Below are positions 12,001-24,000 of a stretch of DNA of 64,000 nt, in pieces. The stretch lies in assembly GCA_965219415.1 (NCBI GenBank), contig CBDCNP010000002.1:4800001-4864000 (forward strand). Reading direction: 5' to 3'. How positions within the stretch are numbered: position 1 is the stretch's first letter; each line of letters opens with the position of its first letter. Made by a program: the position numbers. This DNA is from Candidatus Marinacidobacterales bacterium (GTDB taxonomy: Bacteria; Acidobacteriota; Vicinamibacteria; Marinacidobacterales; DATDRI01).

Positions 12001-15000
12001 TGGCGGAAGCACCCGCAACAGCACCCAAAACTCGCGGTCGACATTCTCGAGAGCCAGCTCGCGACGAGCCTTGAAGGCAGAGATGAGAGCGCGAACAAAC
12101 GACGAAATCATGTTGGCATGGTCCCGGCAGACCGGAGACTAACCAAGTTCCGTGCGCGCGGATGAATAAATAGAAGGCACAGGCTCGCAACGTGACCATG
12201 GCAGATGTCGGCTTGCTGTCCTCGAGCCGATACCTCATTCACGACCGGGACTCGAAGTTCTGCGAGTCGTTCCACCGGACCATCGAGGCGGTTGGCGTCG
12301 CGCCCGTCAAGCTGCCCGCACGGAGCCCGGATTTGAACTCGTTCGCGGAGCGCTGGGTGAAGTCCGTCAAAGAGGAATGTCTCTCGAAGCTCATCCTGTT
12401 CGGCGAGAAGTCGCTCCGTCATGCGCTTAGGGAGTACGTCGTCTACTATCACCACGAGAGGAATCATCAAGGCAAGGAGAATCTGCTGCTGTTCCCAGCC
12501 AGCGACCCGTTACCTCAGTCCGAGCGCAAGGTGCGCTCCCGTGAACGGCTTGGCGGGTTGCTACGTTTCTACCATCGGGAAGCCGCACGAGTATTTTGAC
12601 CTCACGGCATCGGTAATCGCCGATCTAAGCGCCGGCGGGGCTCTTAGAAAACCTCGGCGACGGACCAGCGGCCGGTATCTTTGGGATAGCTGTTCGCCTC
12701 TGCTTCCACGATGCGGCCGACGCCCACGACGTGGCGTTCTTGCCCGACGTCGCAACGGGCCGCGAGCTCCGCGAGCGCCGTCGCCTCCGTCCGTCGCATG
12801 TCGAGGCTCACGAACATCGGCTCGACGCTCATGCCCGATAGGAATCTCGCACCGAGCGCGACGGGACCCTCACGCCCGGACGCCTTGTCCATCGTCAAGA
12901 GGTAGCCGCCGTAAGGCATGCCGGAGCGCGGCGGCCCGGCACGGTGGCAAAGACGATAGGGGGAAGTCTCGATCTCGAAGTCCTCGTCGCTTCCGAGCGG
13001 AAAGCTCAGGATGGGCGCGCCCGCAACGAGAAAATCGGCCTGGCCTCGACTGCCCGTGTACGCGAAGAAGGCCGTCGCGGCGCGCTCTTCCGTACCGATG
13101 GGCTCGGTCTCCCAGAGAAGACGCCCCTCGTTGTTGGCCAGGGAAATGAGCCGGATGCGGTGGACGCTCTCTCGGTCGGATCGGGTGCCCGCGCTTCGAA
13201 GCGGAAGGCGCACCGGTAGCCGGTAGTCGCCATCGTACTCGAGCTTCACCTGCGCGAGGTGCGGCCAGTCGCCGAAGGACGGGCCTTGGGTCTAGGCCCG
13301 GGCCGCGCCTGGACCAGAACGTGTCAGCCCGCTGCGTCGCGGTAGCCCCGGCCTCGATTCTAGGCCCTCTAGAGACGAGAGCGCGAACAAACGACCAAAT
13401 CATGCCGGCATGGTCCCGGCAGACCGGAGACTAATCAAGTTCGGTGCGCGCGGATGAATAAATAGAAGGCACAGCTGTATCTGTTCAAACGAAGCTCTTC
13501 TGTTCATCCGTTAGATACCGTAGCCGCCTCTTTGCTTGACGCTCGAAATCCGATTCGCTGTCGGCAACGACGAATTGCGGTAACCGTTCGTTCAACTCCC
13601 GCTCATTCAACACGGATAGTTCAAAGATCATGTAGTCCAGGGCGGTACGTAGGTTCTCCACGATTTGCGTAACCAAGACCCTTGGCTTACCTCTCACATT
13701 GCTTTCCTTCGGACGCCTCAGTTGGAGCACGAAGTTCCCAGTCTTGCGGTCTAACCCCTTCACCATACCCTTCACGTAGTTGTACAAGAACTCGTCCATC
13801 TCGCGTGCCAGGGAAATATAGTTCTCCTTGGCTTGGTCTATCCGGGCCAAGGCATCCGCCAGTTCTGGTGGTGCTTCGTGCATATCCGGGCATGCGTTCA
13901 TCTTCTGATGGTACCCTTCTGTACAGATCTGACTAGCGATCACGCTGCCCAGCCAGCCGACAGCACCTCCGCTTGTTCGAGCACCGTCCGCGTAGCCTTC
14001 TCCTGCTTGTCGGGTGGGTAACCGTGCTTGCGCAGAATGCGCTTCACCAGCCTACGGAGATTGGCGCGAACGTTCTCGCGAAGTGTCCAGTCGATCGTGA
14101 CGTTGCCGCGTACAGTCGCGACCAACTCACGAGCAATGTCTCGCAGGGTCTCGTCACCGAGCACCTGCACCGCGCTGTCGTTGGTCTCAAGCGCATCGTA
14201 AAAGGCGAGTTCATCGTCCGACAGCCTGAGCTTTTCGCCGCGCGCGTTCGCTTCGCGCATGTGGCGGGCAAGTTGGATCAATTCCTCAATGACCTGCGCA
14301 GCCTCAACGGCCCGGTTCTGGTAACGGCGGATGGTCTGCTCCAGCATTTCGGCGAAGGACCGCGCCTGGACGACATTCTTTTGCCGGCGGACGGCCAACT
14401 CACCTTTCAACAACTTCTGCAACAGTTCCACAGCGAGGTTGCGCTGTTTCATGCCTCGTACCTCGGCCAGGAACTCCTCAGACAGAATCGAAATATCGGG
14501 TTTCTCTAGACCGGCAGCAGCGAAGATGTCGACGACCCCTTCCGAGGCCACCGCCCATGACACGATCTGCCGAACGGCGTAGTCCAGCTCTTCCTCAGGA
14601 CGCACCTCTCCTTCGGCGCGCTTGGCCAGTACCGACCGGACGGCCTGGAAGAACGCCACGTCGTCGCGAATGCGAATCGCATCCTCGTGCGGCACGGCAA
14701 GGGCGAATGCCTGGGAGAGTTCACGCACGGCCTGCAGGCAACGCTCCTTGCCGTTCTCCTGCGCCAGAATGTGTTCCTGCGCTGCCGGCAGCAGGCCGAC
14801 ACGTTCTGCCGGTGTCCCGTCGATCCAACCGGAATAGTCGAAGCCGTAGAACAGGCCGCGGCAGACCTCGTACTTTTCCAACATCACCGCCACAGCTTCC
14901 GCTTGATCGAGAGCGGTCTTCCCGGTGCCGCCGCTCTCGGTGTAGGTCGCAAGCGCACGTTTGAGTTCATGCGCCAGCCCGAGATAGTCGACCACCAAGC

Positions 15001-21000: not shown

Positions 21001-24000
21001 CATCGCCGACGCGAATATTGCCGATCATGTCGATCAACTGGCCGAGACGTTGCTTATCGAGCGCAGGGCGGGCGTAGTCCTTAGGCAGCACGTCCTTGAG
21101 CGCTGGGTTGTCCCGCTCAATGCCGGCCATCGCGCCGTCGACGAGCTGACCGATGGTGGGTTGTCGTGCCTGAGACTTGATTTGGCTCCAGCGGGCCTCA
21201 AGAGGTACCCAGAAGATGTTTTGTGCGCGGTACTCGTCCGGGTCCTCCGGATCGGCGCCCTGAGCTACCTCGCCTTCGAGGCGCACATGCATCTCCTCGA
21301 AGGCGTCCGAGATGTACTTCAAGAAGATGAGGCCGAGGACGACGTGCTTATATTCCGCCGCGTCCATCGAGCCGCGTAGGGCATCGGCCATTCCCCACAG
21401 CGCGGCTTCATGGCCGGTCGTTGCGCCGCTGTCAGAATGGGTGCTCTCAGTCTTTCCCGCTTTCTTCTGTCTCCCACGCGCCATATTGCGATGCTCCCTA
21501 TATCGTTACGCTACCGGCACCGGCCGCTCGACCTGGATCCGGTGGGCGTTCTTCATCGCTAGAGCCAGTTCCCAAGCCGATTGTAGTCTAACCACGTTTC
21601 CTTTTCGCCGTACGCCTCGTCGAGGCGGATCGTCATCTCCTGGGAGATTCCAGAGTCGGCAATCGACGATATCCGGAAACTAATTGCGGCAGACCCGCCA
21701 CCCTCCCGAGCGAAGATCTGGATTCGAGACATAGAGGTAACTTGAGGTCAGCCCAACGGGCCGGCGGCTGTCGACAATGGCACGGACGAGGTCGAGCTGA
21801 GAGGCCCGGATTGCACGCTGCCCTTCCCCGGGCAGGAGTTCATCACGCCGTCCGTTCCGCTGATCAGGCTATCAGGCAGTTGTGTCGATGGAACCGGCAA
21901 AGAGCCAGGGAGCAGGAAGTGACGATGAACAAAATCGTCTCAAGCCATGCCGGACCCTGGTTGAGGCCAAATCCTAGACAAGTAAAGATATTAAGGATGT
22001 CCAGGCAGACATGGACCAGAACGTGCTAGCCCGCTACGCCACGGTAGCCCTGGCCTCGATTCTGGACCCCTCGGGTGGCCTCTTTTCCGACGCTGCACGG
22101 CCCGGTCAGCGGCCCGCTCCCCCCTTTGGCGCAAACGTGGCACTCGAAAATCGAGATTAGAGACGAAATCCGAAGATGAGGCCAGTTCAGCCCTTCTAGC
22201 GCGTCTCTGGTGACACCTACCTCTGCAAAACCCCGCCAACCGCGCGGAAAATCTCACCCGTCTCTGCAGTGCCGCAATTGGCCAGACTGGGTGGCGGATG
22301 GTGAAGTCTGGAGCTATCCGGTCTCACTGGAATCCGTAAAAACAGGGCATTAAGAGTCCAGAAATCCGAAAAAGTGGCCCCAGTCCCCGACAGTTCCTTC
22401 CAGAATGAAGACACTCGACAATGAGCCGCGCGGGGTAAGAAGGGCCGCTCAGGGTCCATTTTTTTAATTTTTTGGGTATAACATGGGGCCAATCTAATGG
22501 AATCACAGGAAGCCCCGGAAAAATCTCCCTCTGACAGCATTCCTGATATCCTGTATTCGTTTTTTGTTCTTTTTAGTGGAGGTTGACTTTCAGGCGGTAT
22601 CGCCGTAGCTTATAGGACATGGCCGGCAGGAAAACGAAGCTTACGCCTGAACGTAAGGAGAAGATTCTCGAATGTGTTCGGGCCGGGATGAGCAACAGGG
22701 CTACCGCAAAGATGGTAGGAATAACGGAGCAGACCCTCTCCAATTGGCTCACACGGGGCGAGAAGGCCAAGAGTGGTTCATTTCTTGATTTTTTTTTCAG
22801 TCTTTCCGGTCGGCCGAGGGAGACTTCGAGCTGTCGAACCTCGAGATCATTCGGCGGAGTTCCAGGGAAGAGACGAAGATCCTTCGCCAAAAGGTCAGAT
22901 ACAAGGGTGGCCAAGTGGTGCAAGGGAAGCTAGTGAATGGAGAGGTCGACGTCGCGGAGACAATAACAGAGACTCGTTCACCGTCGGCAAAGGGTGCTAT
23001 GTGGCTGCTCGCGCGGCGGTTTCCGAAGGAGTGGGGGCAACCGCAACTAGAGCAAGAAGAAGCTCGCGAAGGAGAAGCTCACGATGAAAAACCCCGGGTC
23101 GTATACTACTTACCGGAAAATGGGCGTAGGCGGAAAATGCCGGGGGACGAGATCGTGCAATTGCCAGAAGAAAAGCGAAATGGCTCAACGCGGTTAGAAG
23201 GAGATGAATGACGAATGAGCCAACCGGCAAAATCCCCCTTTGGTGCCCAGAATCCGCGCCAATCCTCACTATTGTCCAAAAAGTAGCAAAATGCTGAAGG
23301 CACCCGATGTGCTGCGGAGTATTCAGAAGGCGCCATTCGCGGCGAGTCATCCAGTAGACGAGTTCGGGCATCCGCGTCCGACTGCATAGAGTCCGTGTCC
23401 GCCCCGCCTATCGCGGAGCACCCGTGGCCAAATCACGGCGGAGGACAACGATGGAGGCTGATCAGAAGCCCGCTGCGCCGGACGGTTCCCCCGCTGCTGC
23501 CCAGGGTGCCGACTATAATAATGATGAAGGACACGCAACCGATGCACCGATGGGTGCTTCCGCAGTCAAGTGTTGGCGGCCGCCGCGTAACCTGTTCGCG
23601 TACTTAGAGTTTTAGCCTGATTTCGATAGACGCAGTTCTTTCGTCGATGCCGGCTGGGCCGAGTTTTGGCCGTGAGGTCAAAATACTCATGCGGCTTCCC
23701 GATGGTAGAAACGTAGCAGCCTGCCAAGCCGTTCACGGGAGCGCACCTTGCACTCGAACTGAGGTAACTGGTTGCTAGCTGAGAACAGCGGTGCTTGCGC
23801 CGTTTACTGTTGGTGATGTGTACGCATCCCTTTGCAAAAAAAGCGCTTACGATCCATTTAGCGCGCGGCGAAGGTCGTGAGCGCTATTTTGGCTGTAATT
23901 TAACGCAGCGTAAAGTCTTAGCGTCATCTCACCAACACTTAATGGCGGAAGCACCCCCTCGGCGGGCTCGACCGGCGTAGCGTGGAAACCGCTTCAGGAA

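Follow-up and report, generated by a model that had tools for sequence, protein, structure and literature searches.

The window, a 64,000-nt stretch of contig CBDCNP010000002.1 from a Candidatus Marinacidobacterales bacterium, carries a type I restriction-modification (R-M) operon on its minus strand, with the gene order hsdM, HEPN, MNT::HsdS, AbiJ-like and hsdR (Table 1). The hsdM product is a clear methyltransferase subunit (Pfam N6_Mtase 1.8e-107, HsdM_N 1e-25; PADLOC MTase_I 5e-223), while the hsdR product has all of the domains expected of it (Pfam HSDR_N, SWI2_SNF2, ResIII, T1R_D3-like and T1RH-like_C; NCBIfam TIGR00348 1.2e-171). Neighbouring genes overlap by 4, 8 and 4 nt. The hsdM stop overlaps the HEPN start by 4 nt, and the GTG start of MNT::hsdS overlaps the HEPN stop by 8 nt, an overlap through which these two genes are translationally coupled. 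The reading frames and coordinates proposed in the earlier note were confirmed on the sequence, and its account of hsdM, a HEPN gene, an MNT-HsdS fusion and hsdR is borne out by the ORFs and by Pfam.

Table 1. Features of the operon; positions count from the first letter of the window.
Feature	Position	Strand	Evidence
hsdM, type I methyltransferase subunit, 529 aa	19895..21484	-	ORF call and Pfam
HEPN toxin-like gene, 140 aa, HI0074 / NTase_sub_bind family	19476..19898	-	ORF and profiles
HEPN motif R101-N-D-T-A-H106-D-Y108 (Rx4HxY)	19575..19598	-	Sequence itself
MNT::HsdS, one ORF, 570 aa	17771..19483	-	ORF and Pfam
MNT domain, residues 1-106	19166..19483	-	Pfam, HI0073 match, motif, predicted fold
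Linker, residues 107-131	19091..19165	-	Predicted disordered; pLDDT <50
Complete HsdS part	17771..19090	-	Methylase_S, PADLOC, predicted fold
AbiJ-like (Pfam Abi_C) gene, broken	17080..17771	-	Abi_C, AbiJ, intact homologues
hsdR, restriction and motor subunit, 1047 aa	13940..17083	-	ORF and Pfam

A nucleotidyltransferase domain fused to HsdS

The minimal nucleotidyltransferase (MNT) and Methylase_S domains lie in one uninterrupted ORF that opens with GTG and has no internal stop, as had been claimed. This start is backed by N-terminal conservation among homologues, with an ATG at the aligned position in 58 of 65 related loci, and the 8-nt overlap with the HEPN gene recurs in 51 of the 65. The HsdS part contains two stretches of Methylase_S (9.5e-31), matches PADLOC Specificity_I over residues 131-563 (1.6e-110), and has two target-recognition domains along with a pair of long conserved helices (288-328 and 514-554). 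Pfam scores for the MNT part are weak, at 25.0 bits for NTP_transf_2 (2.6e-5; cut-off 21) and 24.1 bits for Polbeta (4.2e-5, residues 13-106), the latter below its cut-off of 26.9. Support for the assignment comes from a phmmer match to HI0073 (1NO5, 1.9e-10), a GS-x10-DLD motif and a confident fold; the Legionella pneumophila MNT (8XEH) also matches, at 4e-5. The catalytic signature of the domain is intact (G32-S33, D44-L-D46 and E79), and GS and DxD/E are kept in 81 of 84 related MNT domains.

In the predicted fold of the fusion (mean pLDDT 90.4) both the MNT and HsdS parts are confident, with block means of 78-95 over MNT residues 1-100, and the linker between them is the sole segment below 50. 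This linker of some 25 residues differs in both length and sequence among homologues. It also contains Met118 (19130-19132), which the earlier note had flagged as a possible internal start. If HsdS were also, or mainly, made alone from this codon, the fusion protein would be a minor product. The ATG is indeed present, 13 codons ahead of the position at which unfused HsdS proteins start, and is preceded by GAGG, although the spacing of 4 nt is short. On the other hand, this start is not conserved among the fusions. A start-codon scan of 32 fused ORFs (31 from the related loci described below, plus that of the window) flagged a Shine-Dalgarno-like motif with an in-frame start in 10, at sites that are non-homologous except for a GTG in the conserved last MNT strand of six ORFs, where the motif derives from Arg-Glu codons. 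A linker ATG was not found in any other fusion scanned, and we consider separate production of HsdS improbable.

A broken AbiJ-like gene and the integrity of the fusion

The ORF between MNT::HsdS and hsdR, previously listed as a gene in its own right ('orf101'), is the tail of a frameshifted AbiJ-like HEPN gene (Pfam Abi_C 4.6e-13; PADLOC AbiJ 5.9e-7). This gene is broken by a 16-nt deletion near 17647, such that the first ~40 codons run from an ATG at 17771 and the remainder lies in another frame. Intact homologues are 235 aa long (P0121 is 97% identical), tblastn splits the gene into two frames, and contigs of three of four public runs carry 16 extra nt behind 17647.

The neighbouring gene does carry a frameshifting deletion, and a sequencing or assembly error might have turned two genes, mnt and hsdS, into one by removing a stop or shifting the frame. 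We find this barely credible, as the same fusion appears in 61 of the best 120 HsdS relatives and in 31 of 80 related loci, with varied linker lengths. Furthermore, the listed contigs of three runs (X1, X3 and X8, from three studies) span 18662-19201 with no gaps, and besides the one at 17647 no insertions or deletions are listed in 17000-19950 for the contigs of four public runs from four studies.

The HEPN protein and its predicted complex with MNT

The HEPN gene belongs to the NTase_sub_bind family (PF08780, 9.3e-18; HepT-like 1e-4), and its best NCBIfam model is TIGR01987, 'HI0074 family', at 50.3 bits against a cut-off of 55.8. The NCBIfam equivalogs HepT_toxin and MntA_antitoxin score 20.4 and 21.8 bits, far too low against a cut-off of 60. 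The HEPN profile matches both the L. pneumophila HEPN toxin (8YUF 4.2e-16, 8XDJ 1.7e-15) and HI0074 (1JOG 1.7e-15). In characterised relatives, Rx4HxY supplies the RNase catalytic residues and also the tyrosine to which the cognate MNT transfers NMP (PMC11586414). In this operon the signature is intact (RNDTAHDY). Across an alignment of 68 HEPN sequences the three key residues are retained in 60 (R101), 57 (H106) and 57 (Y108), and all three are intact in 53, including 15 of the 21 that adjoin a fusion; the motif is degenerate in six of these 21 fused loci versus four of 31 pairs without an adjacent hsd subunit.

The predicted complex of MNT (residues 1-117) with HEPN scored 0.69, reproducing the value reported earlier, with the best of three controls now at 0.04. 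Contacts agree 100% and the pLDDT of the partner is at least 83; the mark applied is reached by 58 of 80 solved complexes and two of 110 mismatched pairs. This score is what is expected of a textbook pair, and may owe something to the model's memory of solved HEPN-MNT complexes. Among pairs of solved structure, HI0073/HI0074 and the HEPN-MNT of L. pneumophila are closest, and together with the controls they uphold the view that MNT is the usual partner of such HEPN proteins.

Recurrence and evolution of the fusion

The MNT::HsdS fusion is real, in frame and widespread. An NTase Pfam family and PF01420 occur together in 45 of the best 120 HsdS relatives, the same count as previously claimed, and the higher figure of 61 given above was obtained by motif and alignment. 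The earlier claim of conservation in other genomes also stands, with identical gene order in genome G011 and a tandem-MNT version in genome G029. We then compared 80 related HEPN-MNT loci from many phyla, with 6 kb fetched per locus. Simple fusions account for 26 of these, and a further five carry a second pair whose MNT is fused, bringing the fused total to 31. In six, mnt and hsdS are packed stop to start (3-nt gap or 4-nt overlap), in four only hsdM is present, in three hsdS lies further downstream and one has no called MNT ORF. For the remaining 35, an hsd subunit adjoining the pair was not found within the 6 kb fetched. On the MNT tree, fused loci are interspersed with free ones, with 18 changes on the best tree, of which well-supported branches force at least three. 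According to Anantharaman 2013, MNT nearly always lies 5' of HEPN, the opposite of the order seen here. The HEPN-first order is nevertheless common to the whole HEPN-MNT subfamily, free-standing pairs included, and is not caused by the fusion. A description of the fusion was not found in the full-text literature searched, in agreement with the earlier note.

The ease with which such a fusion could arise provides a serious rival to any functional interpretation. An ordinary selfish or stabilising HEPN-MNT cassette may simply ride in the hsd operon, fused merely through stop-to-start packing, its halves independent on a floppy linker and without cross-talk with restriction. In the six abutting or overlapping loci one small mutation, such as stop-codon loss or a frameshift, would fuse the genes, and on an Acetobacter plasmid mnt and hsdS overlap by 8 nt; recurrence may therefore reflect mutational ease. 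The disordered, variable linker and the 35 pairs lacking a neighbouring hsd subunit within the sequence fetched are also consistent with this explanation, as is the fact that fusions outlast toxin decay or loss. Against this, fused loci outnumber abutting ones by 31 to six among those embedded in R-M operons, and insertion is always between hsdM and hsdS. Fusions are present in at least two deeply separated MNT clades, and a plasmid of Zymomonas mobilis (pZMOB01) has the identical layout with an MNT only 27% identical. Different target-recognition domains stand behind the same MNT, such that the fused state has survived exchanges of specificity. On balance, we regard a neutral origin as possible, if somewhat unlikely.

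The bond between toxin and fusion is not absolute. Of the 26 simple fusions, 24 have a PF08780 HEPN immediately upstream, while two fused loci (L038 and L042) have no HEPN and carry a MazF or ORF6N gene upstream instead. In three others (L032, L057 and L083) a window-like MNT sits on HsdS, and the sole upstream HEPN is 27-28% identical to that of the window, a pattern indicating that the MNT domain can be retained where no close cognate toxin is present. L038 and L042 preserve the MNT catalytic residues, as does L039, whose neighbouring HEPN has lost the RNase motif. The last three loci would suit an exapted enzyme, in which MNT::HsdS and HEPN form a nucleotidyltransferase acting on something other than HEPN (an R-M subunit, a phage protein or a nucleic acid), thereby regulating or extending restriction; the family name 'nucleotidyltransferase substrate binding' in Pfam and NCBIfam fits this too. 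Conversely, the characterised family members are toxin-antitoxin pairs in which HEPN is both the RNase and the MNT target (PMC11586414, PMC7641770), and the HEPN of the window has an intact RNase motif, as do the 53 relatives counted above. Exaptation thus appears scarcely probable.

Discussion

We consider it most likely, at a probability of roughly 55%, that a mobile type I R-M lineage has captured a HI0074/HI0073-type, type VII-like toxin-antitoxin pair and now carries the antitoxin tethered to HsdS. In this model, the HEPN-MNT pair entered the horizontally mobile operon at the junction of hsdM and hsdS, and a flexible linker of ~25 residues now connects MNT to the N-terminal end of a complete HsdS. 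The MNT domain would bind the HEPN protein and nucleotidylate Tyr108 in RNxxxHxY, silencing the RNase. With the antidote built into HsdS, the toxin would stay under control only as long as the specificity subunit continues to be made and remains intact, which would in turn stabilise the hsd operon against loss. The fusion may also station a latent RNase on the M2S/R2M2S complex as a reserve, comparable to PrrC with EcoprrI. The coupling of toxin neutralisation to the restriction complex is our inference from these features, and a fusion that recurs in many bacterial phyla may tie the two together.

Among known systems, type VII HepT/MntA pairs such as Shewanella oneidensis SO_3166/SO_3165 and the L. 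pneumophila HEPN-MNT (8XEH, 8XDJ) share with this locus a HEPN RNase with Rx4HxY that is encoded in one operon with a neighbouring MNT bearing GS...DxD. They differ in that the antitoxin here is the N-terminal domain of HsdS rather than a free protein of ~110 aa, the putative toxin comes first, and the NCBIfam equivalog cut-offs are not reached. HI0073/HI0074 of Haemophilus influenzae (1NO5, 1JOG) are the closest solved relatives of both halves, but are two free small proteins, and an R-M context was not seen for them. In the single-chain MNT-HEPN systems of PMC13000451, an article whose text lacks the terms 'restriction', 'HsdS' and 'methyltransferase', an MNT antitoxin domain is likewise covalently joined to another protein; there the partner is its own toxin, whereas here it is a subunit of a different defence system. 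Plasmid plas1 of Acetobacter sp. AC2005 has the same order (hsdM, HEPN, MNT, hsdS, hsdR) with overlapping stops and starts, although MNT and HsdS are separate proteins, as in six of the 80 loci.

A further parallel is the anticodon nuclease PrrC, a member of the HEPN superfamily whose gene lies within the hsd operon of the EcoprrI type Ic locus. It is presented in PMC3710099 and PMC12707154 as the paradigm of an RNase silenced by an R-M complex and released when a phage inhibits restriction. PrrC contains an ABC-ATPase regulatory domain, and non-covalent contacts with the Hsd proteins keep it masked. In contrast, the putative RNase here is a small stand-alone HEPN protein, and it is the R-M side that appears to bear a dedicated enzymatic antitoxin domain.

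Results

The joining of a minimal nucleotidyltransferase (MNT) domain to the type I specificity subunit HsdS is real and conserved. The operon that carries it (13940-21484) comprises five minus-strand genes arranged head-to-tail, and the order hsdM, HEPN gene, MNT::hsdS, hsdR given in an earlier note on this DNA is borne out by the open reading frames and their Pfam, NCBIfam and PADLOC matches. As judged from these three collections, HsdM, HsdR and a two-domain HsdS are identified unambiguously. HsdR scores 572.6 bits against NCBIfam TIGR00348 (cut-off 284.55), with its N-terminal nuclease domain, SF2 motor and C-terminal domain all present. 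The HsdS half of the 570-aa protein has two target-recognition domains, seen as two Methylase_S stretches in Pfam and as Specificity_I in PADLOC (1.6e-110), and its long conserved helices (288-328 and 514-554) are predicted by AlphaFold2 with high pLDDT. Stop and start overlap by 4 nt between hsdM and the HEPN gene and by 8 nt between the HEPN gene and the 570-aa ORF, and the short AbiJ-like gene overlaps hsdR by 4 nt.

Features of the restriction-modification (R-M) operon and its surroundings, in window positions
Feature	Position	Strand	Remarks
Cas4-Cas1 fusion, Cas_GSU0053, and 546-aa and 1029-aa proteins without Pfam match	1472-8893	-	CRISPR-Cas module, ~2-12 kb from the R-M operon
WYL/WCX regulator	10803-11894	-	
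Transposase/integrase genes and fragments (rve, rve_3, HTH)	12192-12599, 24424-26143, 32739-34013, 35490-36560		both sides of the operon
152-aa ORF	13485-13943	-	overlaps hsdR stop by 4 nt
hsdR	13940-17083	-	1047 aa; HSDR_N 1.1e-49, SWI2_SNF2 2.2e-79, T1RH-like_C 8.7e-135 (Pfam)
AbiJ-like ORF	17080-17787	-	Pfam Abi_C 4.6e-13; PADLOC AbiJ 5.9e-7
MNT::hsdS	17771-19483	-	570-aa ORF, GTG start
HEPN gene	19476-19898	-	140 aa; NTase_sub_bind 9.3e-18, weaker HepT-like 1e-4 (Pfam)
hsdM	19895-21484	-	529 aa; N6_Mtase 1.8e-107, HsdM_N 1e-25 (Pfam)

Within residues 13-106 of the 570-aa protein, Pfam NTP_transf_2 scores 25.0 bits, above its 21-bit cut-off, and Polbeta 24.1 bits, below its cut-off of 26.9. 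These weak scores are independently backed by a phmmer match to HI0073 (1NO5; 1.9e-10), by the GS/DLD motif and by a confidently predicted fold. The catalytic residues G32-S33, D44-L-D46 and E79 fit the consensus hG[GS]-x9-13-DxD plus a third carboxylate, and GS and DxD/E are retained in 81 of 84 related MNT domains. AlphaFold2, run on a 69-sequence alignment, gave a mean pLDDT of 90.4 and a pTM of 0.72, and predicts an alpha/beta MNT domain (1-106) followed by a canonical HsdS. Residues 107-131 are the sole segment below pLDDT 50, so the two parts are probably joined by a flexible tether of ~25 residues, the length and sequence of which differ among homologues.

The database copy of the protein (P0001) has 553 aa and starts 17 codons downstream of GTG 19483. 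The residues upstream of that start align with the N-termini of homologues, the 8-nt overlap of the HEPN stop with the aligned start position recurs in 51 of 65 related loci, and the codon at this position is ATG in 58 of the 65; GTG 19483 is therefore taken as the start. The suggestion that HsdS might also be made separately from Met118 (19130-19132) holds as a possibility for the window genome, where this codon is preceded by GAGG at 4-nt spacing, but not as a conserved feature, since a scan of 32 fused ORFs found no ATG in the linker of any other fusion. An SD-like motif with an in-frame start was seen in 10 of the 32, at sites that are non-homologous but for one GTG; six fused ORFs have this GTG in the final strand of the MNT, where Arg-Glu codons supply the SD-like motif.

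The best NCBIfam model for the HEPN protein is the HI0074 family (50.3 bits; cut-off 55.8), and no PADLOC model matches it. The NCBIfam equivalogs HepT_toxin and MntA_antitoxin are not reached (20.4 and 21.8 bits; cut-off 60 each), and on these profile scores the window pair falls into the HI0074/HI0073 branch. The HEPN motif, Y97-R-D-N-R101-N-D-T-A-H106-D-Y108, corresponds to Rx4HxY, an RNase motif (Rx4-6H) followed by an acceptor tyrosine. R98 is invariant in a 68-member HEPN alignment, with R101 kept in 60 members and H106 and Y108 in 57 each. For the HEPN-MNT system of L. pneumophila, the accessible text of PMC11586414 gives Rx4HxY as the RNase site, the tyrosine of which receives NMP from the cognate MNT. 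Prediction of a complex between MNT(1-117) and HEPN scored 0.69 (best control 0.04), with contacts agreeing at 100% and a partner pLDDT of at least 83. Of 80 solved complexes, 58 attained the mark used, as did 2 of 110 mismatched pairs. HEPN-MNT complexes have already been solved and the score may be a memory of them, so the prediction shows likeness rather than binding by the window copy.

According to the accessible text of PMC3710099, MNT almost always lies 5' of HEPN. The window order is the reverse of this, as it is in 65 of 80 related loci by blastp and in 5 more by Pfam (best 80 of 191). HEPN comes first also in pairs without hsd subunits, which makes the toxin-first order characteristic of this HEPN-MNT subfamily. 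In one clade that includes Candidatus Multivorans records (HEPN genes of loci L019, L024, L036, L039 and L044), the HEPN motif is degraded to ...SLNGTGEPDG..., with R101, H106 and Y108 all lost, while the adjoining MNT shares 73-79% identity with that of the window and keeps its motif.

The small gene between hsdS and hsdR, which the earlier note had listed as 'orf101', has to be withdrawn as a gene of its own: it is the tail of a frameshifted AbiJ-like (Abi_C) gene. Intact homologues have 235 aa and start MADSVIAPF.... The window copy begins with ~40 codons from ATG 17771, which overlaps the hsdS stop; its remainder follows in another frame with 16 nt missing near 17647, which leaves the gene broken. 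Of four public sequencing runs, three have contigs with these 16 nt (behind 17647) and the fourth agrees with the window, so that both forms occur. Abi_C/AbiJ belongs to the HEPN families, and the intact operon would accordingly carry two HEPN genes.

Conservation of the fusion, likewise proposed earlier, was upheld by several lines of evidence. Among the 120 best-matching relatives of the 570-aa protein, 45 have both an NTase Pfam family and Methylase_S, a previously reported count that we reproduced from the relatives table, and 61 have an N-terminal MNT by motif or alignment; unlike first target-recognition domains stand behind the same MNT. Related genome G011 has hsdM-HEPN-MNT::hsdS in the order of the window. 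Contigs from four public runs of four studies have no indels in 17000-19950 except one in the AbiJ-like gene, and pieces from three runs (X1, X3, X8) span 18662-19201 without gaps.

A one-genome-per-species scan with the first 190 residues as query gave 191 relatives. The best 80, which were classified, come from Acidobacteriota, Binatia, Gamma- and Alphaproteobacteria, Chloroflexota, Spirochaetia, Gemmatimonadota, Latescibacterota and Bacteroidota. MNT and HsdS form a single ORF in 26 of these loci, and in 5 a free HEPN-MNT pair precedes another HEPN gene and another, distant MNT that is joined to HsdS (31/80 fused in all). The mnt stop abuts or overlaps the hsdS start in 6 loci, hsdS lies farther downstream in 3, hsdM alone is nearby in 4, the HEPN-MNT pair has no adjoining hsd subunit within 6 kb in 35, and the MNT ORF was not called in 1. 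By blastp, 19 of the 26 simple fusions have a window-like HEPN as their immediate upstream neighbour; Pfam adds L032, L050, L057, L083 and L059, giving a HEPN directly upstream in 24. In these five loci HsdS bears a tandem pair of MNT domains. L050 has two HEPN genes upstream (a nested HEPN-HEPN-MNT-MNT order), and in L032, L057 and L083 a window-like MNT on HsdS has as its sole upstream HEPN one that is 27-28% identical to the window's. Genome G029 (locus L003) also has a tandem MNT-MNT::HsdS. In the remaining two simple fusions, the HEPN place is filled by a MazF/PemK toxin gene (L038, 5447-5938) or by an ORF6N-domain gene (L042, 5323-5865).

Further architectures were seen among the relatives. 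In HsdS forms of ~720-770 aa with an N-terminal MNT (loci L025, L031 and L038; database proteins P0073, P0090, P0101, P0104 and P0118), the first target-recognition domain is followed by a DUF559/MTES_1575 (Vsr-like endonuclease) domain. HEPN and MNT form one 328-aa ORF in L085 (5401-6387), and MNT and a second HEPN one 266-aa ORF in L052 (5986-6786); either may be an effect of ORF calling.

MNT homologues occur in 26 of 61 related genomes, including 24 of 28 of a sister family, whereas the remaining 7 genomes of the family to which the window belongs have none. This distribution, together with the transposase and integrase genes that flank the operon, fits horizontal acquisition. The operon forms part of a defence island. 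The 152-aa ORF at its hsdR end has no match in Pfam, NCBIfam, PADLOC or the 80 related loci, and in the ESM Atlas matches unnamed clusters only, with recognition below the usual mark. Across loci of different phyla (L013-L092), HsdM and HsdR are mostly ~71-86% identical to those of the window (a few down to ~56%), an unusually high identity that suggests recent and wide horizontal spread of the whole operon. In metagenome contigs over this gene (18386-18682 and 17854-19180), the summed depth reaches thousands in the conserved centre of hsdS, with flanks at 10-40, and many contigs jump over either target-recognition domain. This pattern fits many co-resident hsdS alleles in which conserved regions are shared and recognition domains are swapped.

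Discussion

Both fused and unfused forms of this operon exist on named plasmids. Plasmid pZMOB01 of Zymomonas mobilis ATCC 10988, a cultured, non-pathogenic carrier, has hsdM, an HI0074-family HEPN, a 527-aa 'restriction endonuclease subunit S' and hsdR, and the 527-aa protein has an N-terminal Polbeta/NTP_transf_2 domain, an MNT only 27% identical to the window's. Plasmid plas1 of Acetobacter sp. AC2005 has unfused hsdM, HEPN, MNT, hsdS and hsdR, in which every gene overlaps its neighbour, by 4 or 8 nt. The data agree with a history in which a free HEPN-MNT cassette was inserted between hsdM and hsdS, followed by fusion of mnt to hsdS. In a tree of 84 MNT domains (110 columns; 48 of 81 inner branches unresolved) fused and free forms are interspersed, and the members of one clade, set off by a long branch with full support, are fused too. 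The best tree has 18 changes, of which at least 3 are forced by well-supported branches. Given this resolution we claim at least 3 changes, which points to repeated fusion or fission of mnt and hsdS, and give no count of independent fusions. Where mnt and hsdS already abut, a single small mutation suffices to fuse them, and a neutral origin of the fusion is a serious, if less likely, alternative.

HsdSp of Z. mobilis ZM4 was considered as a fusion already under study and rejected, the pZM32 record showing an HsdS of 420 aa and the gene order hsdR-hsdM-hsdS without any gene in between. This protein was assigned two CDD superfamilies and its deletion is viable (Lal et al., PMC8432527); as it is not a fusion, the viable deletion is uninformative for MNT::HsdS.

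The observation of the earlier note is confirmed and its reading partly supported: the anatomy and conservation of the fusion are upheld, and the coupling of toxin neutralisation to the restriction complex is conjectural. By homology, the MNT domain would bind HEPN and nucleotidylate Tyr108, thereby silencing the RNase. With the antidote built into HsdS, silencing would depend on the continued supply and integrity of that subunit. In a more far-reaching model, the R-M complex would act as an antitoxin platform, the MNT tether holding the HEPN RNase bound and nucleotidylated on HsdS. Were the complex disturbed, whether through loss of HsdS, proteolysis or an anti-restriction protein of a phage, newly made HEPN would stay unmodified and shut down translation. 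The RNase guard would be wired covalently into the specificity subunit, with two or more origins and a spread over many phyla. We put the probability of this model at roughly one in four. One possible consequence of the dependence of silencing on HsdS is stabilisation of the hsd operon against loss; another, compatible with the first, is that a latent RNase would be carried on the R-M complex as a back-up, like PrrC with EcoprrI. Several observations count against this mechanism: the HepT_toxin and MntA_antitoxin scores lie far under their cut-offs, two fusions lack a HEPN gene (L038, L042), and L032, L057 and L083 keep a window-like MNT on HsdS next to a HEPN of just 27-28% identity. The HEPN motif, moreover, is intact in 15 of 21 proteins next to fusions, compared with 27 of 31 where the pair has no hsd subunit alongside. 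The mechanism of the MNT::HsdS/HEPN system is plausible and easy to test.

The fusion appears to be an undescribed, widespread variant of two known systems. As the earlier note had found, the running text of the open-access literature searched contains no description of it. It goes unmentioned in the accessible text of PMC3710099, PMC3632139, PMC3506569, PMC2701414, PMC11586414, PMC13000451, PMC12707154, PMC12839542 and 10.64898/2026.10.19.760177. An MNT-TRD fusion could already be among the domain architectures that PMC3710099 gives, with the abbreviation 'RM_TRD', in its Figure 5 and Additional file 1, which lie beyond that text. Four further records (PMC4621449, PMC10354927, 10.1101/2021.04.16.440249 and PMC6927304) matched through strain genotypes or unrelated passages only.

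HEPN RNases are the commonest toxins in immunity loci. Here a well-understood enzymatic antitoxin lies physically within an R-M specificity subunit, in a widespread arrangement whose proteins are filed in annotation merely as 'restriction endonuclease subunit S'. In this system the proposed link of immunity to dormancy or suicide is open to simple, direct tests, with one protein, one tyrosine and a natural unfused control.

A known parallel is PrrC, the HEPN-superfamily anticodon nuclease that, according to the accessible parts of PMC3710099 and PMC12707154, serves as RNase back-up of EcoprrI. As in a PrrC-like guardian, the window's RNase gene is embedded in an hsd operon, and this arrangement is conserved in related loci. 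The window HEPN differs in being a single-domain protein of 140 aa that is without the N-terminal ABC-ATPase domain.
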